From an uncultured Pirellulales bacterium (GTDB lineage: Bacteria; Planctomycetota; Phycisphaerae; Sedimentisphaerales; Anaerobacaceae), in assembly GCA_964439135.1 (NCBI GenBank), contig CAYTNN010000001.1, positions 3,252 through 67,251 of the forward strand: DNA of 64,000 bases, given 5' to 3'. A program made the translations under genes and the position numbers. The notes under the pieces were generated by a model that saw only the letters and a list, made by a program, of their open reading frames with translations, was not told the DNA's origin and searched no databases. Below, in pieces: positions 21,290 to 41,919 of this stretch. How positions within the stretch are numbered: position 1 is the stretch's first letter; every line of letters starts with the position of its first letter.

Positions 21290-21312
21290 TTCTTGTGTCT
21301 CCCTGCGAGGGT

Positions 21313-21339
21313 GGAATCCCGCATATAGCGCGGGATTCC
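21313..21339 (-). other. perfect 10-bp stem-loop between the capsid gene and the next gene
   Basis: GGAATCCCGC (21313-21322), a 7-nt loop, then GCGGGATTCC (21330-21339). Flanking GAGG/CCTC extend the stem. No U-tract follows on the transcribed strand. Confidence 0.5.
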
Positions 21340-21376
21340 CATCCTCGTATGTCCCCCCGATAAATCGGGTAAATGC

Positions 21377-22531: not shown

Positions 22532-22596
22532 TTGTTATTCTCCTGTTCTGCACTCCGCGATAAATTGCGGAGCTAAGTATGCTTGCTTTTCATGAG

Positions 22597-23121: not shown

Positions 23122-23139
23122 AAACTCTCCTTTTCTGTT

Positions 23140-24690
23140 CTATGATTTCTCGTATCCTAATTCTCTGAGCACCTGCTCAGCAGGCACGCCCAGCTCTTTC
23201 TTGACCTGGGCCTCTTTTAATTTTTCCATCGTATTCTCCGGCAGCGGGCTGGGAAAAATGACCTCGACGTCCCGGTCCTTCTGGTCGGTTTTGTAGATGT
23301 TGGCGGTATCGAGTATTCCCAGGACCATCCGGCAGATTTTCCTTAGCCCTTCGCTGTAGGTGAATCGTTTGCGATCGTTCTTCGAGAGCATTCCCATCAG
23401 CGTCAAACGAAGGGCCACTGCGCTTGTCAGGTTGCCGAGTTTGTTCTTCAGCACGCCGGCGACGAGCGGCGTGACGGAACTGACCTTGTCCATCGCTTCG
23501 CGTATCTCAGCGATATGCAGTCCCTCGCTGGGCGTGGCGGTGTCGCCGCCGAACTCCTCGATCGACGCCTCCGGATTATCTGTGTACCACATCCTGCCGG
23601 GCGCCACGGGCTTGTCCTCGAAGCCCTCGATTCCTTTGCCGAGGTACATTTTGAACGACTGAAACGTGATTCTGCTGGCCCGGTCGCTCAGCCGGGTGTT
23701 CAGCTCATCCTGCAGCGGGACAAGCGGCTCGACATCGCTTATACCTTCGTAGTAGTATGGCTGAGCGATGTTCTGGATATGGACGACCGGCAGAAAGCCC
23801 CACGGCATCCGGCCCTCGGCGACGAGTTGCTTGTCCTCGTACCGCTGCCATGCATTGGCCGAGGTGATCTCGGTGATGGGCACCACCCGGCGATTGTCGC
23901 CGGCCTGCGTGCCGCCCGAGAGGAGTCTTGCAAGAAACGAGTTTTTCCTGCTCAGGGCGTTTTTCTTCTGCCCGAAGTGCTGCACGTAATAACGGATCTT
24001 TTTATAATCGTTTTCTTCCAGGACAGGCAGTGCTCTTGGCGCCTCAATCAGTTCAAGATCGATTGTCTGCGCGAACTGCAGCACATCATCGATGGACCCC
24101 GCATAGCGTCGGTCCGCAGAGAGGGTTTGTGAGGAGGAGGAAGTGATGCGTTCGATGATTTTATCGCCAGGCCTGACGAAACAATCGACAAAGCCGTAGA
24201 CACTTCCGAGCACTGCCATATCCTGGAAAAATCCGATCTCGCCGTTGGCCGCGAACAATGCCTTTAAGATGCTTTCGATTTCTGCACTTTTTGGCTCATC
24301 CGGCGATTTGGAAACGAATGTAATGGGCTTGCCGAACAGGAAATCGACCGCCGCGTTGACTCGCCATGCGATGTCGTTCTCGATGACAACTTCTTTTCGC
24401 TGCACCTGGTTGACGGGTCTTGCTCCGAAGATTCCCGCCTGGCCGGTGTGCATAAGTCCGGTGATTCTTGCCGGCAGGCCGTATTCCTGAGCTTGCGTGT
24501 AGCACCGGCCGGATTCGTTTATCTTCCTGTCGGTGGCACCGGAACCAGCCGTCTCGACCTTCGGGTTGGCATAGTAATCCCACAGCCGCCCGAAATGTTT
24601 CTGGATATCGACTGACTGTGTATCGACGAGCCACTCAAGGTAATCGCCTTCGAGTGACTTATCTTCAAATATATCAAGTTCAAATCCCAT
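23140..24690 (-). CDS. phage portal protein
   Basis: 516 aa. First gene of the operon, with RBS GGGAGAG. Size and its position before the scaffold and capsid genes fit a portal. General resemblance to SPP1-type portals. Confidence 0.7.
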   Translation of the reverse strand: MGFELDIFEDKSLEGDYLEWLVDTQSVDIQKHFGRLWDYYANPKVETAGSGATDRKINESGRCYTQAQEYGLPARITGLMHTGQAGIFGARPVNQVQRKEVVIENDIAWRVNAAVDFLFGKPITFVSKSPDEPKSAEIESILKALFAANGEIGFFQDMAVLGSVYGFVDCFVRPGDKIIERITSSSSQTLSADRRYAGSIDDVLQFAQTIDLELIEAPRALPVLEENDYKKIRYYVQHFGQKKNALSRKNSFLARLLSGGTQAGDNRRVVPITEITSANAWQRYEDKQLVAEGRMPWGFLPVVHIQNIAQPYYYEGISDVEPLVPLQDELNTRLSDRASRITFQSFKMYLGKGIEGFEDKPVAPGRMWYTDNPEASIEEFGGDTATPSEGLHIAEIREAMDKVSSVTPLVAGVLKNKLGNLTSAVALRLTLMGMLSKNDRKRFTYSEGLRKICRMVLGILDTANIYKTDQKDRDVEVIFPSPLPENTMEKLKEAQVKKELGVPAEQVLRELGYEKS

Positions 24691-28190: not shown

Positions 28191-29297
28191 ATGAGGCTTA
28201 CAGAAGAACAAGTTATTCAATCTCTTAAAAGCATGGGCGAGCAGTATTCCCCATTGATGATAAATAGCCTTGCGGAGCAGGTTTCTATGCCGGAGGGATC
28301 TCAAGTTGATGCGGTTATTGAGTTCTCAATTCAAAATGGCCCTTCCTTCAAGGCCGTGGCGGAGATTGCACCTGTATCCACTCCGCAGAATATTCTCAGG
28401 AGTGCCCGACAACTTGCTGATTACTTTGGCAAAGCAAAAAAAACAAATATGGTGCCCTTGGTAATCGCTCCCTATATAGGCGCCAAACAGGCTAAGATTC
28501 TGGCGGATAAAGGTATCTCGTGGATAGACCTGTCCGGCAATATGTCCGTAAGGGTTTCGAACCGGGTATATATCGAACGTACCGGCAAGCCCAACTCCTT
28601 CCCCGACACCGCGCCGATCAAAAAGATCTTCCAGGGGACATCGTCTCTTGTCAGCAGGGCGCTGCTCTTGCAGCCGGAAGGCTTCGAATCTTTAACAAAG
28701 ATTACTGACTTTATTACTCAGCGAAGTGGAAAAACCATAATGTTATCAACCGTTTCGAAGGTGCTGAAAAAGCTTGAAGACGAACTCTTGATAAACAGAA
28801 GCAAGTCTCTCATCACGGCGGCTAATCCGGAGAAGCTTTTAGAGAGACTCGCCGAAGGCTACAAGAATTCGACGGAACGAAAAAGACGGAACCCATACAA
28901 ATTCGTAATCGAGGGTATTGAACAATTGTCTGATGGGATGACTGCTCTCAGTAAGGACTATATAGCGTGTGGATTCTATGCGGCGCAAATCAAAGGTATG
29001 GCTGTAACGGATCAGAAGGCGATATTTGTAAAAGATATAGAACAGTTTCGAAGAAAGGCTGAGATAAAGTTGGTTTCAGTCATTCCCGACGCGGAATATG
29101 GAAACTTCATCATCACTGAGACTAATGATCCGGGTGTTTGGTTCAATGCTGATTGGCGAATAACCGGTTCGGTTGTTGACGATATTGAATTGTATCTTGA
29201 GATGATGGTTGATACACCAAGAGGACCGAAGATTGCCGAGCAGCTCAAGCGGCGGATTTTACAGAAAGGCGATAGTAATGGACAGCAGGCTAATTGA
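28191..29297 (+). CDS. putative wHTH regulator/antitoxin partner of the AbiEii-like nucleotidyltransferase (atypical, 368 aa)
   Basis: The central segment SLTKITDFITQRSGKTIMLSTVSKVLKKLEDELLINR looks like a winged helix. Overlaps the downstream NTase gene by 20 nt. Confidence 0.45.
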   Translation: MRLTEEQVIQSLKSMGEQYSPLMINSLAEQVSMPEGSQVDAVIEFSIQNGPSFKAVAEIAPVSTPQNILRSARQLADYFGKAKKTNMVPLVIAPYIGAKQAKILADKGISWIDLSGNMSVRVSNRVYIERTGKPNSFPDTAPIKKIFQGTSSLVSRALLLQPEGFESLTKITDFITQRSGKTIMLSTVSKVLKKLEDELLINRSKSLITAANPEKLLERLAEGYKNSTERKRRNPYKFVIEGIEQLSDGMTALSKDYIACGFYAAQIKGMAVTDQKAIFVKDIEQFRRKAEIKLVSVIPDAEYGNFIITETNDPGVWFNADWRITGSVVDDIELYLEMMVDTPRGPKIAEQLKRRILQKGDSNGQQAN

Positions 29298-30123
29298 GCA
29301 ATTAGCCGAACTGGCGGAATCATTCAACAGGATCGGGCTCAAACCGGTTATCTGTGGCGGTCTGGGTCTCTACCTGTGTTTTCATAAAGCTCAAGGACAA
29401 GCGCGGGAAATGATTCGAGTCACGAACGATATCGATTTGATGCTTACACCAACACAGGTCCTCAAAGAGGCCGAACGGCTGGCTATCGCTGAAACAATAA
29501 CCGATGGCCTGGGATACATTGTGCGCGAAGATTGTGAGTATTTTCAATTTACAAAAGAGCCTGATCAGGACCTGGATATACTTTCGCCGCCAGTTGAGGG
29601 ACTTGAGGTTGATAATTTCAGGGTCAAGATTGTAAAGTCAAAACTGCACGGTCATATTACACCCGAAGCATGTTTCATAGAAGAAGGTTTAAGAACTGTA
29701 TCTTTACGAGAGTTCCTGCCGGAAAGTGAAGAAGGTGGCGGTCTTGAAGTTCATGTACCTTCACCGTCGAATCTATTGCTCCTGAAGCTATTTGCGTTTG
29801 ACGATAGGGACAAAGGCCAAAGTCAGGATTCGGGGCGTGCTCAGGCTCATGCATGGGACATCTATATCACAATTACGTTGGCTACCAGTAGGGGCGATTA
29901 TCTTGAGGGACAAGATTTTCTGGCGAGGCATAAAGATTCGAAGATAATACAAACCGCCCAATCAATTGTTGGAAGTAAGTTTTCATCTATCGAGCATTCC
30001 GGCTGGCACCGTGTGCTCGAATCATCAAATTTTTACCCTGATCTCAACAGGCGGGAAAAAGAAGCCGAACTGGATGAGGCCAGGCGTCGTCTGATCAGGT
30101 GGTTTGATATAGACCGGCAGTAA
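29278..30123 (+). CDS. nucleotidyltransferase, AbiEii/AbiGii (DUF1814)-like toxin candidate
   Basis: VICGGLGLYLC...RVTNDIDLML is the pol-beta NTase GG...DxD motif. LKLFAFDDRD...AHAWDIY resembles the C-terminal K..A...R...D.yD block of DUF1814. ATG at 29278. Confidence 0.55.
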   Translation: MDSRLIEQLAELAESFNRIGLKPVICGGLGLYLCFHKAQGQAREMIRVTNDIDLMLTPTQVLKEAERLAIAETITDGLGYIVREDCEYFQFTKEPDQDLDILSPPVEGLEVDNFRVKIVKSKLHGHITPEACFIEEGLRTVSLREFLPESEEGGGLEVHVPSPSNLLLLKLFAFDDRDKGQSQDSGRAQAHAWDIYITITLATSRGDYLEGQDFLARHKDSKIIQTAQSIVGSKFSSIEHSGWHRVLESSNFYPDLNRREKEAELDEARRRLIRWFDIDRQ

Positions 30124-30974: not shown

Positions 30975-31044
30975 GTCATTCCCGCGAAAGCGGGAATCCA
31001 CTAAATCCGTAATGTTTTTGGATCCCTGCTTTCGCAGGGATGAC
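30975..31044. repeat. pair of inverted REP/BIME-like GC hairpins
   Basis: gtcATTCCCGCgaaaGCGGGAATcc (30975-30999; 8-bp stem with a GAAA loop) and gATCCCTGCtttcGCAGGGATgac (31021-31044). The second is the near reverse complement of the first. Confidence 0.7.
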
Positions 31045-31070
31045 AGTTCGAATCCGTCTTTTTTAGTTCG

Positions 31071-31340
31071 TTAGCCGTCACTGACTCGCAGCACGAGTTT
31101 ACCGAACTGCGACGAGATATTCATTTTCTCCAGCGTTTTATTGCCTTCGCTAAGGGCGAATACCTCATCGACGACCGGGCACTGAATCCCCGGGTATAGT
31201 CCCTGTGTAATCCAGTAATCGCGCCTGTTAAATGCCGCCGCTTTGAGCTTGACGATGATCTGCTCCTTGCCGGCTTCTGGACTGGGCCGCTCCTGCAGAA
31301 CGAGCGGCTGCTTGACTTCGTTCAAAACCAGTGCTTTCAT
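31071..31340 (-). pseudogene. remnant of a zinc-type alcohol dehydrogenase / quinone oxidoreductase (in-frame internal deletion)
   Basis: The 89-aa ORF joins a typical MDR N-terminus (MKALVLNE...VKLKAAAFNRRDYWITQGLYPGI) directly to a typical MDR C-terminus (FALSEGNKTLEKM...FGKLVLRV). The roughly 240-aa catalytic and Rossmann core is missing. Confidence 0.65.
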
Positions 31341-31492
31341 GGCGTATCACTCCGAATCTGAATTCCTGAAATTCCATCCCCAATCATCCCATGAAAGCGT
31401 GGTAACTCAAGCAAAAAAGGTGCCCTTATTGGGAGCCAAAACGCCATTTGGCGAAAAATTATTAAATTTTTGTAAAAATATAACAAAATAAT

Positions 31493-31520
31493 TTGACATT
31501 ATTATTTATTAAGGTAATAT
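31493..31520 (+). promoter_or_regulatory. sigma70-like promoter candidate for the early operon
   Basis: TTGACA (31493-31498), a 16-nt spacer, then TAATAT (31515-31520), in a very AT-rich intergenic region. Confidence 0.4.
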
Positions 31521-31607
31521 TGTAATAATGTGTGATATTTACAAAACTAATTTTATTGACAAAGCACGCTCAAGGGCGGATTGGCAGGCAGGGCAAGGGG
31601 GGCGAAG

Positions 31608-32036
31608 ATGAAACGAATTCATGAAAACATCGCACAGCAGATAAATAACAACAGTCGCGGGCATCGAGGCGGGATAGAGGTGCTCCGCAGCAGGCTGAAT
31701 TTGCTGGCTGGCACGGATAAGCTGCTGATGACCATGTATATCGAGCACGGCAACAGCATCCGGCAGATCGCCCGGATCCGCGGTGTCAGCGAGGCGAGCG
31801 TCGCCCGGAGGATTCGAGCAATTACAAAACGGCTCACGGACGGCCCGTACATCGACTGCCTGAGGAACCGTGACAGACTGACTTGCCGCCAGCTCGCAAT
31901 CGCGAAGGATTACTATCTGATGGGCCTTTCTATGAGACAGATCGCGGCAAAGAGACGCAGGAGCTATTACCATGTTCGCGACATCCTCATCGAAATCCGA
32001 AGCATCGTAACCGCGCCGAAACGCCGGACCGGGTAG
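31608..32036 (+). CDS. phage regulator with two sigma-70 region-4/LuxR-like HTH repeats
   Basis: MTMYIEHGNSIRQIARIRGVSEASVARRIRAITKRL and KDYYLMGLSMRQIAAKRRRSYYHVRDILIEIRSIV are two similar HTH units. ATG at 31608 is preceded by AAGGGGGG. The track start at 31581 is a TTG. Confidence 0.55.
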   Translation: MKRIHENIAQQINNNSRGHRGGIEVLRSRLNLLAGTDKLLMTMYIEHGNSIRQIARIRGVSEASVARRIRAITKRLTDGPYIDCLRNRDRLTCRQLAIAKDYYLMGLSMRQIAAKRRRSYYHVRDILIEIRSIVTAPKRRTG

Positions 32037-32079
32037 CGTTGAGTTTCGTTAGCAATATTCACAATAAGAAGGAGAAGCT

Positions 32080-32730
32080 ATGGCAACGTACAGCATTTCA
32101 AAGACTTTCAAATGGCGGGGCACTGTAACCGACAAGGTCGCCTCGGTCTGCCGGATGTTCGGCCTTTCGCTCGACAGGCTCGCCGGGCAGCGCTTCAAAC
32201 ACTCGTGCCGGCTCGAAATTGATGCCGGTGACATCGTCTACCTCACCGGCCCATCCGGTGCCGGCAAGAGCGTCCTGCTGGGCGAACTTCAGAAGGCCGT
32301 CCCCGCCGGCGAGAGGATTAACCTTGCCGAGATTCCGCTGCCGGACGATAAGACGCTTATCGACTGTATTGACGCTGATCTGGCCGAGAGCCTGCGATTT
32401 CTCAGCGTCGCCGGCCTGAACGACTGCTTCTGCATTCTCAATCAGCCGGTCAATCTCAGTGCCGGCCAGCAGTACCGCTTCAGGCTTGCGATGGCTCTGA
32501 CCGCGGGAAAGAAGTTCGTCTTTGCCGACGAGTTCTGCTCGGGGCTGGACAGCGTCACCGCAGCGGTAATCTCGTATCGCCTGCAAAAGTTCGCAAAACG
32601 CACCGGCACGACTTTCATCCTTGCCTCCAGCCGTGACGACATACTGCTTGACCTGTCGCCCGATGTCCTGGTGGTCAAAGAATTATCCGGCCCCGCCGAT
32701 GTTATCTACAAGTGTGAAAGGAGGAAATAA
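32080..32730 (+). CDS. small ABC-type ATPase (no transmembrane partner)
   Basis: Walker A GPSGAGKS, signature-like LSAGQQYR, Walker B FVFADEF and D-loop SGLD. 216 aa. Confidence 0.65.
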   Translation: MATYSISKTFKWRGTVTDKVASVCRMFGLSLDRLAGQRFKHSCRLEIDAGDIVYLTGPSGAGKSVLLGELQKAVPAGERINLAEIPLPDDKTLIDCIDADLAESLRFLSVAGLNDCFCILNQPVNLSAGQQYRFRLAMALTAGKKFVFADEFCSGLDSVTAAVISYRLQKFAKRTGTTFILASSRDDILLDLSPDVLVVKELSGPADVIYKCERRK

Positions 32731-32731
32731 A

Positions 32732-33466
32732 ATGACAAGCTGTTCTGTTAGTGAGAATCTGCAAATCGTACCGGGCTGTCTCGACGACTACAAGCGGCTC
32801 GCCCACTATCACTACCGCGGCAGTCACACGGGACCCGCTTCGGCGATCTTCGCCCTGAGCCGGGCCGGCTGCAAAACGCCGGTCGGCGTCATCGTCTATT
32901 CGACCGCGCCGGCCGTGCTGGAGCTGCGAAACATCGCGACCGGTCACGTCTTTGCCGGCTTCGACAGGAGCACGCAATTGGCGCTGATAAACGCCAATAT
33001 CCGCCGGATCAGCAGGGTGGTTATCGAGCCTCGGTTCCGTGGCCTTGGCCTGGCGTGCCGGCTGGTCAGAGAAACGATGCCGCTGGTTGATGTCCCAATC
33101 GTCGAGGCACTGGCCGTGATGGGATTGGTCAATCCGTTCTTTGAAAGAGCCGGCATGAAGGCCTACAAAGCAAAGCCGTCCGCAGCCAGCGTGCAATTCG
33201 TAGAGTCGCTCAACATCATTGGCATCGAACAGGCCGGGCTGATCGACCCGGAGCAGGTGCAGCAAAAACTCGATCGGCTCGGCGACTGCGAAGCCCGATT
33301 CATCGAACGTCAAATCCGGCACTTTCTCAAAAGCCACGGCAGACGCAGAGACATGCCGCCCGGCTTAGAACGAACGCGATACATCCTGACAAAACTAACG
33401 GCACGCCCCGTCTATTACATCTGGTTCAATCCAAAACTCACAGATACCGGAGACAACAATCTTTAG
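32732..33466 (+). CDS. GNAT-like acetyltransferase-fold protein
   Basis: ISRVVIEPRFRGLGLACRLV is a beta4 strand plus motif A (R-x-x-G-x-G). ATG at 32732 lies 1 nt after the ATPase stop, with AGGAGG upstream. The longer track ORF (32621) overlaps the ATPase gene. Confidence 0.5.
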   Translation: MTSCSVSENLQIVPGCLDDYKRLAHYHYRGSHTGPASAIFALSRAGCKTPVGVIVYSTAPAVLELRNIATGHVFAGFDRSTQLALINANIRRISRVVIEPRFRGLGLACRLVRETMPLVDVPIVEALAVMGLVNPFFERAGMKAYKAKPSAASVQFVESLNIIGIEQAGLIDPEQVQQKLDRLGDCEARFIERQIRHFLKSHGRRRDMPPGLERTRYILTKLTARPVYYIWFNPKLTDTGDNNL

Positions 33467-33477
33467 GAGGAACAGTA

Positions 33478-34104
33478 ATGCGAGAAACCACAATCCAGAA
33501 TCGAGTATCGAGTATTCCAATCGACAAGCTCACCGCACATCCCGGCAATCCCAACCGGATGAGCAAGAGGAACTTCTCCCGGCTTGTTCGCAATATCGAG
33601 CGGACCGGCCGTTATGAGCCGCTCGTGGTCAGACGGCAGGGCGACGGCTTCCAGATCATCAACGGCCATCATCGCTGCCGGGCTTTGCGGGAGTTGGGCT
33701 ATAATTCTGCCGATGCTGTCGTCTGGGACGTGGACGACGCCGAGGCTGATATTTTGCTTTCCACGCTCAATCGCCTGGGCGGCTCGGACGTGCTGGAGAA
33801 AAAGCTTGCCCTTTTGGAGAGGCTCAATCGCAAAATGCACGCCCGCGAGATGGCGAAGCTTCTGCCGTTCACGCGCTCGCAGATCGAGCGGCTGAAAAAC
33901 CTGAAAGTCCCGTCCGCACCGGCCAATATCTCCGTTAAAAGCTTTGCCGTTCCGATGGTGTTTTTCCTGAGCGATGACCAGCAAAAGATTGTCACCAAGG
34001 CGTTGGCTTCTGTACGAGAGAGCCAAAACGAAAAAACAAAGGCTGCAGGAAACGCCGCGGCCCTTACTTACATTGCCCAACGTTTCATCGAAGGCCCCGG
34101 ATAA
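33478..34104 (+). CDS. ParB/Srx-like N-terminal (nuclease/NTP-binding) domain protein
   Basis: IPIDKLTAHPGNPNRM...LVRNIERTGRYEPLVV...FQIINGHHRCRALRELG is the ParB-like domain pattern. RBS AGGAGG lies 11 nt after the GNAT stop. Confidence 0.65.
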   Translation: MRETTIQNRVSSIPIDKLTAHPGNPNRMSKRNFSRLVRNIERTGRYEPLVVRRQGDGFQIINGHHRCRALRELGYNSADAVVWDVDDAEADILLSTLNRLGGSDVLEKKLALLERLNRKMHAREMAKLLPFTRSQIERLKNLKVPSAPANISVKSFAVPMVFFLSDDQQKIVTKALASVRESQNEKTKAAGNAAALTYIAQRFIEGPG

Positions 34105-34201
34105 TGCCCTGTTACATTCTAAACGAACGGCTTTTATTGAGAGACCAACAAAAGACCATTGAAAGACTATCGAAGCTAATTTTTTTAGGTTGGATTTGAA
34201 G

Positions 34202-34936
34202 ATGAAGATTAAATATGTCCAGTTAGAGTCTGATGCGTTTTTGACGGATATCGACTTCGTTCAGTTCACGCCGGCCGAGAGGGGCTTGTATTGCAGCCTG
34301 ATTCTGCTACTTACCTCTAACGACGGCAAATGCACGTTCGATCCGCAGGCATTGAGTCGGATGTGCAATTGCCAGAGCGTCGAAGAGTTCGAAATAATCT
34401 GGCAGAGAATCTCAAAAAAGTTCCAGCTCCGCAACGGCACAATCCGGCATAAACGCGTCACGCGGGAGCTCGGCAGAGCAAAGAAACTCTTGCAAGCCAA
34501 GCGTAGAGGCGGACTTAGCGCGGCAAGGAAAAGGCAGCAGAGCACCAGCATAGCTGATAGCACTGCTATCGCTAAGGAAAGGGAAGGTAACGTAAAGGTA
34601 AGTAAAGATCTTACGAATACGAATACGGCTGATCACTCAGCTTGTACTTCGGATTCGCTTCGCACTGGCTCGACCACAGGCCAGCAGCTTAGCGCGCTTC
34701 GTTTTAACGATGCGCTTGGCCGGATAATTCCGCCCCGGTCGCGGTCGGACCGGACGTGCTTTCGCAATGTCACTAACTGGCTGGTCGATGGCTGTGCCGG
34801 CGGGCGGTTCAACGCCGAGATTTTCGAACGCGTGCTGGACTACGCCAAGCAGGCCCGGCAGGGCAAAAAGCCCGCCGCCGTGTTTATGGCAATACTCAAA
34901 GAAGAGCTGGGATACGAGAAGAAAGGAAAAAGTTGA
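34202..34936 (+). CDS. DUF1376-like phage replication-associated protein
   Basis: YVQLESDAFLTDIDFVQFTPAERGLYCSLILLL...ALSRMCNC...EEFEIIWQRISKKF resembles the DUF1376 pattern. ATG at 34202 is in frame with the TTG at 34190. Confidence 0.5.
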   Translation: MKIKYVQLESDAFLTDIDFVQFTPAERGLYCSLILLLTSNDGKCTFDPQALSRMCNCQSVEEFEIIWQRISKKFQLRNGTIRHKRVTRELGRAKKLLQAKRRGGLSAARKRQQSTSIADSTAIAKEREGNVKVSKDLTNTNTADHSACTSDSLRTGSTTGQQLSALRFNDALGRIIPPRSRSDRTCFRNVTNWLVDGCAGGRFNAEIFERVLDYAKQARQGKKPAAVFMAILKEELGYEKKGKS

Positions 34937-34952
34937 AAGGAGAACGCGGAAA

Positions 34953-35222
34953 ATGAATGCTGATGTTATGATTGAGGATGTTGAGCCGGCTCGCTGTCGG
35001 ACGATGCGGGCCGAAGCCGAGATCAAGCGCGACCGTTTCGCCCAGCAGCGGGCGGCGTGGGAATGCCTGAAGTTTTTCGAGCAGACGCCGGCCACCGAGG
35101 CGGATTTCCGCATGAGGTTCGCGGGCATGCCTGCCGACGATGTCACGCTACTGAAGGCCTTCTACGGCATTCAAACAGACGCCGAGTTGCTGGCGATGAT
35201 CTGCTGCTTCTGGAACGTCTAA
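34953..35222 (+). CDS. small phage hypothetical protein
   Basis: 89 aa from ATG 34953, with GAAAGGAGAA upstream. The longer track ORF (34767) overlaps the previous gene. Confidence 0.45.
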   Translation: MNADVMIEDVEPARCRTMRAEAEIKRDRFAQQRAAWECLKFFEQTPATEADFRMRFAGMPADDVTLLKAFYGIQTDAELLAMICCFWNV

Positions 35223-35279
35223 GCTGTACACACACCCCAAAGCGGGCGGATCATCCAGCTTGCTGTCACATGTGTCGGA

Positions 35280-36896
35280 TTAGGGCACTACTACTTGAAT
35301 GGAAAAGGTTTTTAAAGGCTCGACACCTTCTTCCCATGATCTGTGATAGACGAGTTCGAGGGTCATCTGTCCTGCGCTTACGGCCTTGAAACGGAAGATT
35401 TCCCAGCCGCCGGCGCCGACCATTGGTGGTTCGCCTGTCTCGGATGACTTGAACTCTGCCTGGCCAAGCTGGACCAGGATAGACTTGCTGTTTTTGGGCT
35501 GCTCCCACCGATAACCGGTTGAGGGATTTGATTCGAGTGTAACGACAAGTATCTCGCCCAGCTCAAGCTCGACTTGTTCGCCGTCATTACCCTCATTGAT
35601 TTCTACAGTTTCAGCCGGCGGGTATACCTCGAGCAGATGTTCGGTAAGGACAGTCAAATCCAGGGCATCTACTATGCCGTCGCCCCAGGGTATCGGGGCA
35701 ATGTCGCACAATTGATTATCTGTGCCCCAGTATTCAATCATGATGTACATGTCGGCAGAATCTACAATCCCATCGCCATTTAGGTCGGCAATATTGTTGT
35801 TCGTGGCTGGCATTCGAACAAGAAATGTTCCTCCAAGCCAGTCATAATCTCGTCGTGTTGGGGGATTCTTGTAGCGATACTCCACACCAAAAATCAGGTT
35901 CTTGTCTGGACTGATAATACCATCCGGCACACCGTCATCGTCAAGATGAAATTCATTTCCGGGGCCAACAGAGCAATCCTTGCTTTTAACTGAATGTTCG
36001 CCGTCGGAATAATTGGCATCCACCAATAGGATTCCATTGGCATCATCAACAGCCTCTATGACACAGGTTCCCTGGCCGCAGGTGTAAGGGACAGCGCCGG
36101 GGCCGGTTTCAAGAAATCGAACCTGATAGGTACCTACAATATCAGCCATTGTTATCGCCTGGTCCGTTTTCTTGATGAAAATGTTGTATCCCAAATCACC
36201 ACTTCTGCCTTCTTCAGGAACAATTTGCCACGCGGATCCGATACCCCCCTTGCCGAGAAAGAGTGCAGCATGTCCAATGTCGTTTATCATAGGTCCAACG
36301 ATATTTATTATGGCGTTTACGTCATCGAGGGTCCAATTTATTATGCCGCCGGGCTCAATACGGCCATCAGCGTTCGTATAAGTAAGTGTTGAGGTACCAT
36401 TGGGGTCGAATGTAAAATTCCCCCATTCACAACTATCAGATGGCAATGGGTATATGGTCATCGAGTTTACTTGATGACCCAAAAAGCTATGGTCACCGAG
36501 AACATCATTAACATCTACATTGGTTGCTTTACGCGTGAAGATATCGATTCCTTCCCCGCCTCCACCAAGAACACTTCCCGCATGAATCATCACGTCGCCA
36601 TTCCAGGCAATATTATAAGTCTCGGCCGGAAAATTGATATTGATCGACCCATCCTGCTGGAATGTAGTGGTGAAAGTCTCCGAGAACATATGATTGCCGT
36701 CGTAGTCCTCCCAGTGCTGAAGCCATTGATTACCGGTGATCGACACGGTTCCCCGTTTAGCCCAGGGCGCATTCGTATTGACATCAACACTGAGACTGCC
36801 GAACCAATACTGCCCGCTTAAGTTTGGACTGCCGAACGAAACAGCAGACAATAACATAACGATTGCGATAACACTTTTTGTGATTGACCGTTTCAT
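35280..36896 (-). CDS. secreted protein with dockerin-like repeats and a C-terminal chagasin-type (I42) peptidase-inhibitor domain
   Basis: Signal peptide present. DLNGDGIVDSADMYIMIEYW...WGDGIVDALDLTVLTEHL are dockerin-like repeats. VVTLESNPSTGYRWEQ...GAGGWEIFRFKAVSAGQMTLELVYHRSWE carries the NPTTGYxW signature of inhibitor family I42. Confidence 0.7.
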   Translation of the reverse strand: MKRSITKSVIAIVMLLSAVSFGSPNLSGQYWFGSLSVDVNTNAPWAKRGTVSITGNQWLQHWEDYDGNHMFSETFTTTFQQDGSININFPAETYNIAWNGDVMIHAGSVLGGGGEGIDIFTRKATNVDVNDVLGDHSFLGHQVNSMTIYPLPSDSCEWGNFTFDPNGTSTLTYTNADGRIEPGGIINWTLDDVNAIINIVGPMINDIGHAALFLGKGGIGSAWQIVPEEGRSGDLGYNIFIKKTDQAITMADIVGTYQVRFLETGPGAVPYTCGQGTCVIEAVDDANGILLVDANYSDGEHSVKSKDCSVGPGNEFHLDDDGVPDGIISPDKNLIFGVEYRYKNPPTRRDYDWLGGTFLVRMPATNNNIADLNGDGIVDSADMYIMIEYWGTDNQLCDIAPIPWGDGIVDALDLTVLTEHLLEVYPPAETVEINEGNDGEQVELELGEILVVTLESNPSTGYRWEQPKNSKSILVQLGQAEFKSSETGEPPMVGAGGWEIFRFKAVSAGQMTLELVYHRSWEEGVEPLKTFSIQVVVP

Positions 36897-37196
36897 TTCG
36901 CCTATCTCCTGTATTTTGTATGTTCTGACATTTCCAATTTAGCGATACCTGACTGCATCGTGCATCTTACGCGCACCTTTCGCGGCATATTTTATTTCGA
37001 TCAGATTCCGCTGATTGCAAGTCATAAGCGAGTTTCTCCTCCAAAAAGCCTATTATACGGGTAAAGAACAGCTTTCTTAATTATGCACAAATCAACTCAA
37101 TTTGTCAAGTGTGTTGATGTATTTTTCCGGACTATTGGTTTACATAAGAAGGCTCCGAGAGCATAAAATCGCGTTAAGATAGGTAATAACTCGGCT

Positions 37197-37352
37197 GATT
37201 TTCGACCAAAAGCGATGGTAGTTGGAAGTAAAAATAAAAAAGTTTAGAAAAATTTTTATTCCATATCAAACAAGGACTTACAGAATAAACACTGTCTACA
37301 ATTTTGTAGATTTTCGCATCAAACGCGCAGGTACGTTCAATTATGGGGGGGG
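37197..37352 (+). promoter_or_regulatory. conserved upstream element, copy 2 (upstream of the 109-aa/DnaB operon)
   Basis: Reverse complement of 24779-24932. The identical 42-bp block is at 37292-37333. The palindrome TCTACAA-TT-TTGTAGA is at 37295-37310. A G8 run (37345-37352) lies at the operon-proximal end. Confidence 0.6.
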
Positions 37353-37428
37353 CGGCTTTTTTTCGGCCGGGGCCGAGAGCCGGTCGCCCGAAATGTGAAT
37401 ATAGCAGCCTGGGACCGGGATTGAACGG

Positions 37429-37758
37429 ATGGTTTCGAATAATAGTGACATTATGACCTGTCACGAGCAAGAGCTACAAGAGATGCTTGAGATCGGCCTG
37501 TATCTCGGTTCCGGGCCGCGATACCTGCTCTATTATTACGGGCAGCTTGCGATTACCAATGGCGTTGGGTTGAATCGTTGGCCGGAAGGGCCGAAGGTGG
37601 TCGTCGCCGTTATCAAGGCTCAGGAATGTGCGGGCGGGCTCAGCCCGGCGAGAAAGGCGTATCTGCTGGCGAAGCTGCGTTCGCTGGAAGATGTCAGGAA
37701 AGTACAAAGCCGGCTCGCGAGCGAGGAAAGAGGCCGGCTCAGTTTGCAAAGGAGTTGA
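37429..37758 (+). CDS. phage hypothetical protein
   Basis: 109-aa ORF ending 1 nt before the dnaB ATG. Start is uncertain. Confidence 0.45.
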   Translation: MVSNNSDIMTCHEQELQEMLEIGLYLGSGPRYLLYYYGQLAITNGVGLNRWPEGPKVVVAVIKAQECAGGLSPARKAYLLAKLRSLEDVRKVQSRLASEERGRLSLQRS

Positions 37759-37759
37759 A

Positions 37760-39112
37760 ATGTCAAAGAAGGATGTCACTATGCCGTTACGAGAGCTTCC
37801 GCAGTCGATAGCAGCCGAGGCGGCGGTGTTGGGCTCGATCATACTCGATCCGGCATGCCTTGCCGAGGCGGCCGAGCTTCTCTGCGTCGAGGCGTTTTAT
37901 TATTACGAAAACCGTGCGATATACGAGGCGTTGCTGCGAATCTCCAACTGTGGTGACGGCGGATCCATCGATTGCGTGCTGCTACGGGATGAGCTGGTCA
38001 CGATGGGCAAAATGGAGGAGGTCGGCATAGAACATCTCGTAAAGATAATGGATAGCGTTCCGTCGGCCGCCAACGCGATATATTACGCGAAGATAGTCAG
38101 AGAAAAATACCTGCTTCGCAAGCTGATTGCAGCCAGCAAGGACATCTGCGAGAAGGCGTACGAGCAGGGCGAGACGGTTGATGAGCTTATCGATATGGCC
38201 GAAGCGAGCATCTTCGCAATTGGCCGGCAGACTCAGGTTTCGACTATGCACACGCTGAGCGAGTTGCTGCCTTTGGCATTTGAAGCCATCGAGATGCGTG
38301 ACCCGAACAGCCTGACGGGATTATCGACGGGATTCTATCAGTTGGATGAGATAACATGTGGCCTACAGAAGGGCGATGTGATTGTGATGGCGGCTCGCCC
38401 GAGTATTGGCAAAACGTCGCTGGCACTGAACATTATCGAGAACCTGCTAATCGGCGAAGATGTGCCGGTCGCTTTGTTCAGTCTTGAGATGGGCGGCGTG
38501 CAGTTAGCCGAGCGGATGATGAGTTCCCTTAGCCGATTGGAAAATCAGAAGGTCAGGAAAAATCATCTGAACGACAAAGACTACGCCGAGCTGGCGGACG
38601 GTATGGGACGGCTTGTGGAAAGACGCCTCTGGATCGAAGAGGCCTCCGTGCTGACGCCGCTTAGCATTCGGTCGAGAGCCAGGCGTCTGAAGGCCGCTTA
38701 CGATATACAATGCATCGTCATCGACTATTTGCAGCTTATCAGCACGCACGGCCGGCATGAAAATCGCCAGCAGGAAATCACGAGGATAAGCCGGTCGATC
38801 AAATCGCTTGCGAAGGAGTTGGATGTCCCTGTCATATTGCTCAGCCAGCTCAACCGGGCGCCTGCCGGCCGCAGCAACTTTATGCCGAGGCTGACCGACC
38901 TGCGTGAGAGCGGCAGCATCGAGCAGGACGCCGATGTCGTTTTGCTGCTGCATCGGGAGGATTATTACCATAAGGGACAGGCCGATTACTGTAATACCAA
39001 CGTGGCGGATATTATCATCGCCAAGCAGCGAAACGGCCCAATCGGAGCGATAAAACTGACGTTCCGCCCGGAATTGTCGAGATTCGAGAGCTATGCGCCT
39101 CCGGAGCAATAA
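37760..39112 (+). CDS. dnaB: replicative DNA helicase DnaB
   Basis: LPQSIAAEAAVLGSIILDP (DnaB N-terminal domain), Walker A ARPSIGKTSLALN, LFSLEM, IVIDYLQL, and SQLNR...DLRESGSIEQDADVV. ATG at 37760 follows GGAG. Confidence 0.9.
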   Translation: MSKKDVTMPLRELPQSIAAEAAVLGSIILDPACLAEAAELLCVEAFYYYENRAIYEALLRISNCGDGGSIDCVLLRDELVTMGKMEEVGIEHLVKIMDSVPSAANAIYYAKIVREKYLLRKLIAASKDICEKAYEQGETVDELIDMAEASIFAIGRQTQVSTMHTLSELLPLAFEAIEMRDPNSLTGLSTGFYQLDEITCGLQKGDVIVMAARPSIGKTSLALNIIENLLIGEDVPVALFSLEMGGVQLAERMMSSLSRLENQKVRKNHLNDKDYAELADGMGRLVERRLWIEEASVLTPLSIRSRARRLKAAYDIQCIVIDYLQLISTHGRHENRQQEITRISRSIKSLAKELDVPVILLSQLNRAPAGRSNFMPRLTDLRESGSIEQDADVVLLLHREDYYHKGQADYCNTNVADIIIAKQRNGPIGAIKLTFRPELSRFESYAPPEQ

Positions 39113-39127
39113 AAAACGAAAAATCTC

Positions 39128-39156
39128 TTGACAAATCACTCGGAAATGCCGATAAT
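39128..39156 (+). promoter_or_regulatory. sigma70-like promoter candidate
   Basis: TTGACA (39128-39133), a 17-nt spacer, then GATAAT (39151-39156), just downstream of dnaB. Confidence 0.45.
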
Positions 39157-39352
39157 ACTTATTAATAAGGTAGTGACAGGATGATTTCATCTCGAAATTT
39201 CTTCCTGAACAATCGGGGCGGCATGCCGCAAAAGAAGTGTAAGTCTTTTTGTTTTAGTACTTTATGTTAGGAGTACTTGTTTCTAATAGGGGTCCCTTTT
39301 TTTCGTTTTTTTGGTGATGTGAACGATTGAGAATAATGAATGAGGTTATGTA

Positions 39353-39733
39353 ATGGCAAACAATGGTGACCAAGATCTTATCAGTGGTCCGTGGTCGTGG
39401 ACAGAGGATGATATAAAGCTGCTAAAAAGGCTTTATCCACGAGGAAATACCAGGATGATAGCCGCGAAGCTTTGCCGGCCCTTGACGGCGGTCAGGCAGA
39501 AGGCTTACGACATGGGTATGAAAACGGACATATACAGCTATTGGACCGAGGATGATTTGAAGCTGCTTGCAAAGCTTTATCCGGAGACAATAACAGACGA
39601 GCTTGCCGAGCGTTTTGGCAGGTCGGCAGGATCGGTAAAGACCAAAGCACGCCAATTGGGGTTAAGAAAAAGCGATAGCTATCTAAAAGCTATTAAATCC
39701 CGCCCTCGAAAACGGCGCAAGAAACAAGCCTGA
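39353..39733 (+). CDS. tandem SANT/Myb-like DNA-binding repeat protein
   Basis: Two repeats: WTEDDIKLLKRLYPRGNTRMIAAKLCRPLTAVRQKAYDMG and WTEDDLKLLAKLYPETITDELAERFGRSAGSVKTKARQLG. Basic tail PRKRRKK. Confidence 0.55.
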   Translation: MANNGDQDLISGPWSWTEDDIKLLKRLYPRGNTRMIAAKLCRPLTAVRQKAYDMGMKTDIYSYWTEDDLKLLAKLYPETITDELAERFGRSAGSVKTKARQLGLRKSDSYLKAIKSRPRKRRKKQA

Positions 39734-39909
39734 TTTTCAACGGCATTAAGTCGTAAATGTTTTAATCTTCAGTTTTGCTGGGGGCCATCTCTGGCAGTAT
39801 GTATTTAATGCGCCATAAGCATAAGTATGTACGCCATCAGTAAATTCAGTCGCAACCGATTTTCATTTCAAGCCGGAATTTTGATAAGGGCAATAAGGGG
39901 GGTACAGCC

Positions 39910-40347
39910 ATGACCAAAGCAAAAGCATTAAGTGCCAAACAGCTTGCCGTGATTGAGGATTTATTTGAAGGCCGGCTGGAAGAGCAGGCAATTCTGGAAA
40001 AACACAGTCTCAGCAGAAAGCTCTTCGACAAGTGGCTGGCCGATGAGGCCTTCACCAGCCACCTCGATTGGCGCACGGCCTGGGAATACCGCAGGAGCGA
40101 GTTTATGCTGGCCCACTACGCCCGGGTGGCTGTGTCAAATCTCGTGCAGCTCACAGATCCTGATAACAAACAACCGGAAACCGCTCGCAAGGCCTGCCTC
40201 GACATAATCACAATGCGCGCCAACCGTTCAGCCGGCACCAACGTGACGCCGGGCGAAAATCCCGCATCGCCCCCCGAATCCCCGCCATTCTCACCCGAAA
40301 CCGCCGGAAAAATCTTAGCCGTCTTAGCAGAAGAAAAAAGCGATTAG
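39910..40347 (+). CDS. HTH protein, terminase-small-subunit-like (uncertain)
   Basis: The N-terminal LSAKQLAVIEDLFEGRLEEQAILEKHSLSRKLFDKWL resembles the helix-turn-helix start of Terminase_2-type small subunits. Assignment is weak. Confidence 0.35.
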   Translation: MTKAKALSAKQLAVIEDLFEGRLEEQAILEKHSLSRKLFDKWLADEAFTSHLDWRTAWEYRRSEFMLAHYARVAVSNLVQLTDPDNKQPETARKACLDIITMRANRSAGTNVTPGENPASPPESPPFSPETAGKILAVLAEEKSD

Positions 40348-40509
40348 TACATCTTAATCAAAGACCAAATTTCTTGCCTTATTATACTTTTCGGCTCTAA
40401 ACTATAATAAGAATTCGCTTATTAAACGGAAGTATAATAAGATATGCTGAGCATGAAAATGCTATTTGCTGGTCGGAAGGTGGCATAAGGCATTAGGGTA
40501 AAGGAGTTT

Positions 40510-41919
40510 ATGAGCATGATATGCAGCAATGACTACACACGGCGGGGATTTTTAAAGACTATGGGGGCTGGGGCGGCCGTTCTGGCTTCGGCGGGGAATA
40601 TAATGGCTGGAGAGCAGAAGGCGGCGGGTAAGCCGAATATTTTGATGATTCTGGTCGATGATTTAGGTTACGGGGATTTGTCGAGCTATGGGGCGAAAGA
40701 TTTGAAGACGCCGCATATCGACAGGCTCATGACGGCCGGGATACGGTTCGATAATTTCTACGCCAACTGCCCGGTCTGCTCGCCGACGAGGGCGGCACTA
40801 CTCAGCGGGCGCTATCCGGACATGGCCGGAGTGCCGGGAGTTATTCGCACGCATATCACCAATAGCTGGGGCCACCTCGCTCCGTATGCAGAGTTGCTGC
40901 CGAAGCTGTTAAAGCCGGCCGGGTATCACACCGCCATCGTCGGCAAGTGGCATCTCGGCCTGGACTCGCCCAATACGCCGAACGAGCGCAGCTTCGACCA
41001 CTTCCACGGCTTTCTCGGCGATATGATGGACGATTACTATAACCACCGGCGTCACGGCAATAATTACATGCGGCTGAACGGCAACCAAATCGACCCCGAA
41101 GGCCACGCCACCGACCTGTTCACGCAGTGGTCGATCGACTACATCAGCGGCCGTGCCAAATCGGACCGGCCGTTCTTTTTATACCTGGCCTACAATGCTC
41201 CGCATACTCCGATTCAGCCGCCGGATGACAGGCTCGACCGAGTGAAGAAACGCGAGCCCGGCATAGATAACAAGCGAGCCAAACTCGTAGCCCTGATCGA
41301 ACAACTCGACGACGGAATCGGTAAGGTCATTGCGGCGTTAAAAGACGCCGGAGTAAGTGACAACACGCTGGTGATTTTCACATCCGACAACGGCGGCCAG
41401 CTCGGTGTCGGAGCCAGCAACGGCCCACTGCGAGCCGGCAAGCAGGACATGTACGAGGGCGGGATTCGCGAGCCGATGTGTGCGGTCTGGCCGGGAAAGA
41501 TTCAGCCGGGCACCCGCAGCGAGCGTGTCGCGCTTACGATGGACCTGTACCCGACCATCTGCGAAGCGGCCGGCGCGAAAATAGCTCACCAGATTGACGG
41601 GCGCAGCATCCTGCCGACGCTGCTGGGTAAATCGCAGCCGGCCGAGGACCGCTTTTTATTCTGGGTCCGTCGCGAGGGCGGCGGCTACGGCGGACGGGCA
41701 TATTACGCTGCACGGTACGGCGACTACAAGCTCGTGCAAAACAATCCTTTCGAGCCGATGGAGCTTTACAATCTCAAAGACGACCCGAAGGAGCAGAAAC
41801 CTCTCGGCAGGAAGAACAAAATGTATCAGAAGCTCTTTAGCGCTCTACGCAACCACATAATTGAGGCCGGAGCAGTACCCTGGCAGAAATACCCGGTCGA
41901 AATAAAGGCGGATCAATAA
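40510..41919 (+). CDS. Cys-type arylsulfatase with Tat signal
   Basis: RRGFLKTMGAGAAVLA is a twin-arginine signal. CPVCSPTRAALLSGR is the sulfatase CxPxR signature. FTSDNGG is also present. Confidence 0.9.
   Translation: MSMICSNDYTRRGFLKTMGAGAAVLASAGNIMAGEQKAAGKPNILMILVDDLGYGDLSSYGAKDLKTPHIDRLMTAGIRFDNFYANCPVCSPTRAALLSGRYPDMAGVPGVIRTHITNSWGHLAPYAELLPKLLKPAGYHTAIVGKWHLGLDSPNTPNERSFDHFHGFLGDMMDDYYNHRRHGNNYMRLNGNQIDPEGHATDLFTQWSIDYISGRAKSDRPFFLYLAYNAPHTPIQPPDDRLDRVKKREPGIDNKRAKLVALIEQLDDGIGKVIAALKDAGVSDNTLVIFTSDNGGQLGVGASNGPLRAGKQDMYEGGIREPMCAVWPGKIQPGTRSERVALTMDLYPTICEAAGAKIAHQIDGRSILPTLLGKSQPAEDRFLFWVRREGGGYGGRAYYAARYGDYKLVQNNPFEPMELYNLKDDPKEQKPLGRKNKMYQKLFSALRNHIIEAGAVPWQKYPVEIKADQ

Follow-up and report, generated by a model that had tools for sequence, protein, structure and literature searches.

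An ABC ATPase, GNAT and ParB gene module beside terminase genes of planctomycete chromosomes: a candidate DNA-directed acyltransferase

The three genes and their products

The DNA considered here is a stretch of 64,000 nucleotides, referred to in its full length as the window, from contig CAYTNN010000001.1 of an uncultured Pirellulales bacterium (assembly GCA_964439135.1). Near the middle of the window lie three consecutive genes, designated A, B and C, which encode an ATP-binding cassette (ABC) ATPase, a protein with the fold of the N-acetyltransferases related to GCN5 (GNAT) and a ParB-like protein, respectively.

32080–32730, + strand: gene A, ABC ATPase, 216 aa
32732–33466, + strand: gene B, GNAT-fold protein, 244 aa
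33478–34104, + strand: gene C, protein with a ParB N-domain, 208 aa

The ATG of B is located one base past the TAA of A, so that the two genes are 1 nt apart, and the gap between B and C is 11 nt. The sequence AGGAGG is found 7–8 nt 5' of both B and C, and AAGGAG is found 5' of A, so that all three genes possess a ribosome-binding site. The common strand, the two short gaps and the AGGAGG sequences in front of B and C had all been described in the original prediction and hold on re-reading. The trio and its neighbours were compared with Pfam, PHROGs, NCBIfam and PADLOC. Related loci were collected by scanning one genome per GTDB species with an alignment of ten B sequences; more than 517 stretches encode a close relative of B, and the locus statistics given below refer to the best 80 of these (L024–L103).

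The product of A carries the Walker A motif GPSGAGKS (residues 57–64), the signature LSAGQQ (126–131) and the Walker B sequence FVFADEF, with the Walker B/D-loop segment ADEFCSGLD at residues 150–158; these motifs, like RFRGLG of B, are present as first quoted. The protein matches Pfam ABC_tran with E 5e-10 and 40.5 bits, above the cutoff of 25, and phrog_293 (E 7e-29) and shows a partial match to mad3 of PADLOC (E 2e-13), while its scores against the transporter families of NCBIfam all fall under the respective cutoffs, the top one being 59 bits against a cutoff of 296. In the aligned family an N-terminal FGL element is conserved, and no conserved Q-loop glutamine was found. The segment between Walker A and the signature comprises about 65 residues; in the nucleotide-binding domains (NBDs) of transporters the same segment is about 30 residues longer. 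The H-loop histidine is replaced by Arg185 (codon 32632–32634) in the window and in its close relatives (ASSRDD). Most aligned family members keep the histidine (ATTHxD), and a few others have Q, N or R.

By structure and by sequence, A finds its top matches among transporter-type NBDs. For the ATPase half of P0180, a natural fusion of the A and B families described below, the nearest solved structures are HrtA, MacB, MetN and Wzt, and not ATPases of the SMC, RecF or OLD type. With the Type VII-like transporter NBDs (HrtA, MacB, FtsE, LolD, MetN) A shares Walker A, the signature, Walker B and the D-loop; it differs from them in having an enzyme as its partner and no permease, in lacking the conserved Q-loop glutamine and in possessing the FGL element. 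No permease gene was found near A in the window or within the unit in the 80 relatives. The absence of a permease, the sub-threshold NCBIfam scores and the missing Q-loop glutamine rule out a transporter ATPase. A is thus, as had been proposed, an ABC-like ATPase without a permease and not part of a transporter, namely a compact, soluble ABC ATPase that belongs structurally with the NBDs of transporters.

B could not be identified from its sequence alone. In Pfam it gave only a sub-threshold match to Acetyltransf_10 (E 0.098), in NCBIfam and PADLOC there was no match, and in PHROGs it matched phrog_886 (E 2e-14); in sequence and profile searches of the PDB only motif A could be aligned to solved GNATs (…RVIIxPRFRGLGLA…). 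Its identity therefore came from an AlphaFold model, for which 54 diverse homologues served as input (predicted local distance difference test, pLDDT, 94.4; predicted template modelling score, pTM, 0.87), and from Foldseek searches with this model. The latter returned the GNAT fold, with Naa60 and the arylalkylamine and polyamine N-acetyltransferases as generic matches; the list also contained TmcA (2zpa), NAT10 (9aym, 9j3c) and phage Mom (BFVD S4TTR0, E 2.4e-5). The acyl-coenzyme A (acyl-CoA) motif A corresponds to R101-F-R-G-L-G-L-A108. H27, Y28, R66, N87, R95, E125 and Y228 are invariant across the family and R103 and G106 nearly so, a set of residues that is consistent with an active acyl-CoA-dependent transferase. 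What had been taken for a C-terminal extension of B is in the model a helical insert (about residues 150–226) followed by the last beta-strand (227–232), which includes the invariant Y228 and which we read as the closing strand that rejoins the GNAT sheet. The model, its Foldseek matches and the alignment of motif A agree with the earlier assignment of B to the GNAT fold, and we regard B as a divergent GNAT-fold acyltransferase, with confidence as far as the modelled fold is concerned.

C, which carries INGHHRCRALRELG, matches Pfam ParB_N (E 3e-10) and aligns over residues 12–136 to Spo0J (1vz0; E 1e-9); Noc could also be aligned, over the N-domain and part of the central region. The description of C as a ParB/Srx-domain protein is thereby borne out. 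Where chromosomal ParBs have the CTP-binding box GERRxRA, C has GHHRCRA, and the GHHR is kept in 78 planctomycete relatives, C being strongly conserved in this clade. Through its ParB domain C also matches PHROG 498 and MTase_II of PADLOC. The window encodes a second ParB-family domain, in a 442-aa open reading frame (ORF; 56056–57384, + strand) that combines the beta-domain of an MscS-type mechanosensitive channel (Pfam E 5e-8) with a C-terminal ParB_N (E 5e-12), an unusual fusion of a membrane channel and ParB.

Coupling of A, B and C in phages and cellular genomes

The B family is large, with 1,646 matches in a database clustered at 90% and, at 50% identity, 1,347 representatives. Among the 150 best of these representatives, 19 are ABC::GNAT fusions. 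One of the fused proteins, P0269 (665 aa), which is probably archaeal, bears a C-terminal TFIIB repeat in addition, and P0180 is predicted to form one compact unit (pLDDT 89, pTM 0.83). Eleven loci were found in IMG/VR with the B profile, and A is adjacent or fused to B in every one for which upstream sequence is available. In the viral contig L011 a single ORF of 652 aa (4771–6726) contains ParB (residues 27–165), ABC (199–404) and GNAT (411–601) domains, and in L012 an ORF of 1,303 aa (2980–6888) joins ABC, GNAT, uracil-DNA glycosylase (UDG), 3'-5' exonuclease and DNA polymerase A. Other neighbours of A and B in the IMG/VR loci include DnaB, PrimPol, PolA, SNF2 helicase, HNH and TerL. In L020, a distant fusion, the order is a sigma70-r4 helix-turn-helix (HTH) gene, ABC::GNAT and ParB, and the HTH protein resembles that of the window (E 3e-6).

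Among cultured phages, those of the SSU5 type, the nickie-like phages of Pseudomonas and those of Rhizobium, Stenotrophomonas and Xanthomonas show the arrangement ParB (often in two copies or as a ParB-methyltransferase), ABC, GNAT-like, a small DNA-binding protein, TerL and portal, and in the actinophages Jace, BiggityBass and EastWest it is ParB, ABC::GNAT and then terminase. Searches with Jace gp86 detected the family in Streptococcus pyogenes prophages, in Lactococcus P335, Oenococcus, Porphyromonas and Leptospira phages, in Burkholderia phiE255 and in T4-like Aeromonas phages; these relatives often adjoin ParB or DNA-methylase genes, and in nickie and the streptococcal phages the module has DNA methyltransferases as neighbours. 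In the Gordonia/Rhodococcus phage Jace the genes gp85–88 (L022, 3417–6182) encode ParB, ABC::GNAT, an aspartate decarboxylase (PanD; Pfam E 2e-33) and a protein resembling class III CoA-transferases (E 2e-8; Far racemase in the PDB, E 0.007). The decarboxylase, a bona fide one, has the GS self-processing site known from E. coli PanD. Within the phage collection PanD was found beside the module in Jace alone, and BiggityBass has a formyltransferase-like gene where Jace has the PanD region; our literature search found nothing that links PanD and ParB-like genes in phages.

Among the 80 planctomycete loci, C is present in 77 and A in 72. The coupling of the three genes is thus far beyond chance. 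Their conservation as neighbours, which had been suggested as a check, is seen both in these loci and in independent phage lineages, and together with the fusions and the adjacency it supports the view that the three genes function as a unit. That A and B go together in phages was first indicated by the label 'ABC transporter', which PHROGs 293 (A) and 886 (B) share. In the GenBank records of SSU5, nickie, the Javan prophages and pT24, both A and its GNAT partner are likewise widely labelled 'ABC transporter ATP-binding protein' or 'iron siderophore transporter'. No permease partner was found in the A-B loci examined, and these labels are a systematic mis-annotation.

Relation to known and predicted systems

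The combination of A and B is not new as such. A GNAT coupled to an ABC ATPase was predicted by Iyer, Zhang, Burroughs and Aravind (2013, NAR 41:7635) to acylate a DNA base, the modification itself being uncharacterised, as summarised by Iyer et al. (2021, Viruses 13:63; PMC7824862), where section 3.4.7 names Tenacibaculum phage pT24 (accession QAX98348.1) as the exemplar of the ABC ATPase-GNAT system. A matches gp038 of pT24 (E 3e-8 with tblastn, 9e-49 with an iterated profile), and the product of the next gene, gp037, carries the family motif RIVVLPDFQGLGLG and matches the B profile with E 1e-3. Two motifs of B, namely HHY and R-[IV]-V-x-x-P-x-[FYW]-[RQ]-G-x-G, also occur in pT24 gp037, Jace gp86 and BiggityBass gp2. 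Since A matches gp038 and gp037 carries the GNAT motif, the module of the window is, judging from these sequence matches, a member of the predicted system. The record of Escherichia phage Cyrano gives its B homologue the name 'MK0520, ABC-type ATPase fused to a predicted acetyltransferase', a designation that we take to be that of COG2401. The statement that the trio belongs to no named or described system can therefore not be upheld, as the pair is catalogued in the Cyrano record and in PHROGs 293 and 886 and a DNA-acylation function has been predicted for it (PMC7824862). Literature searches for 'COG2401' or 'ABC-type ATPase fused' gave no matches, that for SSU5 returned nothing useful, and no experimental work on the ABC ATPase-GNAT system was found. 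The A-B kind is thus known computationally, its published function being a prediction, and the planctomycete occurrence is a further member in an unusual context. In the published system, which is built from the same families, ABC::GNAT fusions are common, whereas A and B of the window are separate, translationally coupled genes to which a ParB gene is attached; compared with the pT24-type system, the window further differs by its location in a chromosomal phage-derived packaging cluster and by the replacement of the H-loop histidine by arginine.

Three groups of characterised proteins invite comparison. Mom of phage Mu makes an N6-acyl modification of DNA adenine ('momylation'); like B it has a GNAT fold, and it is thought to modify the base with an acyl-CoA-type donor shortly before packaging. 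The structural match between the two is, however, poor (S4TTR0, root-mean-square deviation (rmsd) 9.5 at the E-value given above), and the Mom family is not among the Pfam, PHROG and NCBIfam matches of B. Neither an ABC ATPase nor a ParB partner is known to take part in the action of Mom, which is regulated by a com/mom system of its own. TmcA and NAT10 (Kre33), ATP-dependent RNA cytidine N4-acetyltransferases that are among the top Foldseek matches of B, likewise combine an NTPase with a GNAT, which transfers acetyl from acetyl-CoA to a nucleobase. Their ATPase, however, is a helicase domain of the RecD type, fused N-terminally to the GNAT and accompanied by a tRNA-binding domain, they act on tRNA or rRNA and they have no ParB partner. 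The matches of B to these enzymes span the GNAT fold alone, with high rmsd, and are no better than those to generic GNATs; the limited matches and the ABC type of the partner ATPase rule out membership of B in the TmcA/NAT10 family. As for C, the ParB-like DpdB ATPase accompanies the 7-deazaguanine system of DpdA. DpdB/DpdA and the ParB-methyltransferase fusions resemble C in that a ParB/Srx domain is attached to a DNA-modifying enzyme; the catalytic partner of C is a GNAT with an ABC ATPase and not a transglycosylase or methyltransferase. DpdB is mentioned in PMC12839542. ParABS systems, finally, have ParA, with a deviant Walker A motif, and parS repeats, whereas the ATPase of the module is of the ABC type.

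Genomic context in Planctomycetota

The genes of the window that bear on the context of the trio are as follows.

11946–24690, - strand: head/tail gene cluster, divergently oriented, the structural half of the phage-derived element
15442–16959, - strand: lectin-like fibre, in the head/tail cluster
21377–22531, - strand: SU10-type major capsid protein, in the head/tail cluster
23140–24690, - strand: SPP1-type portal, in the head/tail cluster
31493–31521, + strand: sigma-70-like promoter candidate 5' of the HTH gene (TTGACA, spacer of 16/17 nt, TAATAT/AATATT)
31581–32036, + strand: protein with two HTH motifs, sigma-70 region-4-like (Pfam HTH_58 4.7e-6, Sigma70_r4_2 1.7e-5)
34190–34936, + strand: DUF1376 gene, 3' of C
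35280–36896, - strand: chagasin/dockerin protein, between DUF1376 and DnaB
37628–39112, + strand: DnaB helicase, within the insert between C and the terS-like gene
39353–39733, + strand: HTH2 (phrog_323, E 6e-18), within the same insert
39910–40347, + strand: terS-like gene (phrog_2538 small terminase, weak, E 3.4e-4)
46528–48012, + strand: TerL, large terminase (phrog_2, 2.6e-17)

The promoter candidate agrees with the consensus at 10 of 12 positions in a consensus scan, that is, as a pattern match only, and may be the start of an HTH-A-B-C transcript; no terminator-like site was found on the + strand of 31581–34104. By its gene content the window is a Phycisphaerae-type bacterial chromosome. 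Its first part (1–12 kb) contains transporters, a pectate lyase and a spore-photoproduct-lyase-like gene, and at 48–63 kb there are genes for a protein like cysteine synthase, a peptidase, an aspartyl-tRNA synthetase and a histidine kinase. Interspersed among the phage-like genes are GH5 cellulase, PfkB, AbiE toxin-antitoxin, nitroreductase, sulfatase, FAD oxidoreductase and ferredoxin genes, the last three of which (sulfatase, FAD_oxidored and Fer4) separate TerL from the terS-like gene. The ORFs annotated in the window include no integrase.

The 80 related loci come from metagenome-assembled genomes of Planctomycetota, except for one labelled Candidatus Aegiribacteria and one that is unclassified, and include a 7.5-Mb chromosome. 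Their common gene order is capsid and portal, in some cases followed by PfkB, all in leftward orientation, and then rightward HTH, A, B, C, terS-like, inserts in some cases, and TerL. The HTH gene, with which the conserved unit begins, is present 5' of A in 61/80 loci. A terS-like gene follows C in all 40 loci with more than 8 kb of downstream sequence, at a median distance of 47 nt, and in 31 of these 40 TerL lies within 10 kb downstream; of the 39 loci whose upstream sequence exceeds 8 kb, only 14 have the portal on that side. The genes that separate C from the terS-like gene in the window are not conserved: DUF1376 occurs in 19 of the 80 loci, HTH2 in 15, chagasin in five and DnaB in one, and 34190–39733 is a lineage-specific insert outside the conserved unit. 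The trio had been placed between the HTH regulator and the DUF1376 gene, which is true of the window, while the DUF1376 neighbour is confined to the 19 loci just mentioned. In long contigs the flanks contain genes for arginine biosynthesis, MnmA, TsaB-like proteins and folate enzymes. Ribose-5-phosphate isomerase B is found in five members of the flank set; as its size fits, it would correspond to the ORFs of roughly 150 aa between the terS-like gene and TerL in five loci. Even where the flanks are housekeeping genes and no capsid genes lie within 10 kb, the unit stays with the terminase genes. There are no integrase families among the 25 most frequent Pfam families of the flanks.

Measured against the window, the relatives show median identities of 83% in the capsid protein, 76% in the portal, 73% in TerL and 75% in PfkB, compared with 65% in A, 59% in B and 55% in C; capsid protein and TerL are thus conserved to the same degree as the neighbouring PfkB, and the identity of B correlates with that of PfkB and of TerL (rho about 0.7). 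From this pattern we infer a long-resident element rather than an active prophage. The location of the trio in a phage early operon, as first proposed, is contradicted by these loci: in the relatives the trio stands directly 5' of the terS-like gene and TerL, and the locus is chromosomal, with housekeeping genes around and inside it. Annotation of both ends of the window and of the related loci rules out an intact prophage with an early operon. The observations suggest instead an apparently degenerate or domesticated phage-derived cluster, possibly akin to gene transfer agents (GTAs). Like GTAs, e.g. RcGTA of Rhodobacterales, the locus has a small head/tail and terminase set without an integrase or a conserved replication module, appears to be chromosomally fixed in many related species and encodes structural proteins that are conserved like metabolic genes. 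Unlike GTAs, the planctomycete clusters are interrupted by metabolic genes, and they are known here from their genes alone, so the resemblance would be one of gene content and conservation. We know of no GTA with a ParB-ABC-GNAT module, and no literature on a domesticated phage-derived element in Planctomycetota was found.

Several further features were noted around the conserved unit. A defence slot of the window (28191–30123, + strand) contains an AbiEii nucleotidyltransferase toxin and its upstream partner, and in relatives its contents vary, with pairs of a PARIS-like AAA_15/AAA_21 ATPase and DUF4276 as well as a Fic gene (L004, 13301–15222; L007, 7786–9673). An 89-aa ORF (31071–31340, - strand) resembles a piece of a zinc alcohol dehydrogenase whose complete form (326 aa) occupies this position in the relatives L004 and L005, and is probably a decayed gene. 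Within the insert, the gene at 35280–36896 (- strand) encodes a secreted-looking protein of 538 aa that combines a dockerin motif with a peptidase-inhibitor domain of the chagasin type (I42) at its C-terminus. The HTH2 gene contains a 41-nt direct repeat (39398–39582, + strand; 83% identity, copies 144 nt apart), which reflects an internal domain duplication in this small DNA-binding protein.

Proposed function and its alternatives

We propose that A, B and C work together as a DNA-directed acyltransferase, in line with what Iyer et al. predicted for the pair of ABC ATPase and GNAT, and consider the chances of this proposal to be about even. B would be the catalytic subunit, binding acyl-CoA through its conserved R-x-x-G-x-G/A motif and moving the acyl group onto an amino group of a nucleobase, with E125 in beta-5 as the likely general base and Y228 and H27-Y28 lining the acceptor site. 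The donor in the window would probably be acetyl-CoA, which is the simplest choice because no donor-synthesis genes accompany the trio; in Jace, the sequences of PanD and the CoA-transferase make a route to a beta-alanyl-CoA donor plausible. A would be bound to B in a fixed arrangement, in keeping with the single polypeptide that the two form in many relatives, and would dimerise on ATP as other ABC ATPases do; its ATP cycle would serve to grip or distort the DNA substrate and to return the enzyme to its initial state, a role that would be analogous to the ATPase requirement of TmcA/NAT10. C would bring the complex to DNA, as ParB domains do for the phage methyltransferases fused to them, and may contribute an NTP-gated switch. 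The module would act on replicated DNA just before packaging, which would explain its position beside terS and TerL. Of the functions originally considered for the trio, DNA modification agrees with the fusions, the neighbourhoods and the published prediction (PMC7824862), while its anti-restriction part is less obvious in the planctomycete loci. Also in favour of the proposal are the confidently modelled GNAT fold of B with its acyl-CoA motif and invariant candidate catalytic residues, the occurrence of TmcA, NAT10 and Mom among its otherwise generic structural matches, the obligate linkage of A and B, the ParB genes immediately up- or downstream of the pair in independent lineages and the gene order of Jace.

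Several points weigh against the proposed DNA-directed acyltransferase. The Foldseek matches of B are generic for GNATs (E about 1e-4, template modelling score about 0.4). Folds, motifs, fusions and gene order are observed, but we infer, rather than observe, that DNA is the acceptor, as we do the identity of the donor and the role of ATP. The replacement of the H-loop histidine by Arg185 means that ATP hydrolysis and turnover may be atypical in the clade of the window. The triple fusion of ParB, ABC and GNAT is one metagenomic ORF, and a search for a second one in cultured phages found none. As ParB was undetected within 6 kb in six of the 11 IMG/VR loci, C is a frequent and not an obligate partner of A and B. 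Finally, the apparent chromosomal fixation of the trio beside terminase genes in planctomycetes makes an anti-restriction function less obvious and brings a role linked to packaging into play.

In such a role, which overlaps in part with the proposal above, HTH, A, B and C would select, mark or license DNA for encapsidation together with TerS and TerL: ParB would bind to and spread from a pac-like site and the ABC ATPase would serve as a clamp or loader, with a packaging protein or the DNA as the acetylation target of the GNAT; anti-restriction as such would not be the purpose. The position of the trio directly 5' of the terS-like gene (40/40) and of TerL (31/40) in Planctomycetota speaks for it, as do the same slot in the SSU5, nickie, Rhizobium, Stenotrophomonas, Xanthomonas and Gordonia phages and the retention of the unit with the terminase where capsid genes are lacking within 10 kb. 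Phage DNA methyltransferases, however, tend to sit just before the packaging genes, and they are found beside the module in the loci that were fetched; because they occupy the same slot, position alone does not discriminate between the two functions. Elsewhere the pair lies in replication modules or is fused to PolA, far from any terminase, and no convincing palindromic or arrayed repeat of the parS or pac type was found in 31000–41000. We consider a packaging-linked role doubtful. A somewhat smaller probability is given to an enzyme that acts on proteins, in which B would acetylate a protein of the host or the phage, for example one of the nucleoid or a subunit of RNA polymerase, or a defence protein, with A as an ATP-dependent adaptor and C as a nucleoid localiser. 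Rac of phiKMV provides a phage acetyltransferase precedent for an RNA polymerase subunit. The top Foldseek matches of B are Naa60 and the polyamine and arylalkylamine N-acetyltransferases, and most characterised GNATs act on proteins or small amines; phage GNATs that modify host proteins are known, according to PMC7824862. Yet the fusions to ParB, to UDG, exonuclease and PolA and to TFIIB, together with neighbourhoods rich in DNA enzymes, suggest a substrate close to DNA, and PanD and the CoA-transferase of Jace suggest an unusual acyl donor of the sort typical of base hypermodification; an enzyme directed at proteins is accordingly unlikely.

A role in conflicts is less probable still. The ABC ATPase would sense an invader or a defence signal and activate the GNAT, a toxin or counter-defence enzyme that would acetylate, for instance, aminoacyl-tRNA or nucleotides; abortive infection or the exclusion of superinfecting phages would result. 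Published surveys in comparative genomics describe ABC ATPases as frequent modules for sensing or energy supply in conflict systems, as in the OLD, PARIS and Gabija types (PMC12839542) and in Dnd-associated systems (PMC10853773); A partially matches mad3, and defence genes occur in the same region (AbiE in the window, PARIS-like genes in relatives). But B has no PADLOC match, A resembles transporter-type NBDs more than the OLD, SMC or RecF clades that defence systems typically use, the trio is constant whereas the defence genes around it change from locus to locus, and in complete phage genomes the module is found among replication and packaging genes and not in defence islands or moron-type positions. 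Nothing thus favours the toxin or superinfection-exclusion function that had been listed among the options. The least probable alternative is an unconventional partition system of a plasmid or prophage, likewise listed at first, with the ABC ATPase in place of ParA. A ParB-family protein does adjoin an NTPase here, and the module occurs in the records of SSU5-like carriers, which are known as phage-plasmids. It is also present in nickie, which we take to be lytic and which would not fit partition, and in chromosomal loci with housekeeping flanks; C has GHHR in place of the GERR box. As a main explanation partition is made unlikely by the absence of a ParA-type ATPase and of a parS-like palindrome array in 31000–41000 and by the fusions of the ATPase to GNAT and, once, to DNA polymerase, which it would leave unexplained.

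Implications

If the prediction of a DNA-directed acyltransferase is true, this family makes an N-acyl adduct of DNA that has never been seen chemically. The B family is very large, and its carriers include phages that can be cultivated: the S. pyogenes prophages, lactococcal P335, Gordonia, T4-like Aeromonas and Leptospira phages and the SSU5-type phage-plasmids of Salmonella, Klebsiella and E. coli. The annotation of the A and B genes as 'ABC transporter' is misleading in this respect. The leads added here are PanD and the CoA-transferase of Jace, with their possible beta-alanyl donor, the natural ParB-ABC-GNAT and ABC-GNAT-PolA fusions and the invariant residues.

The fixation of the module beside terminase genes in hundreds of planctomycete genomes was unexpected. 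The planctomycete context may reveal an unrecognised domesticated phage element; to our knowledge, none is known in Planctomycetota. As a tentative extension, which we regard as possible but distinctly less probable than the acyltransferase function itself, HTH, ABC, GNAT, ParB, TerS and TerL would in Phycisphaerae and Sedimentisphaerales be the packaging half of a vertically inherited, domesticated element present in hundreds of species, which would be GTA-like or co-opted for some other function, with the compact SU10-type head/tail genes as its other half, and purifying selection would have maintained the trio for marking the packaged DNA by acylation or for licensing it. If this were so, the element would be the first GTA-like system of Planctomycetota and the module the first dedicated DNA-acylation module to serve a domesticated packaging machine.

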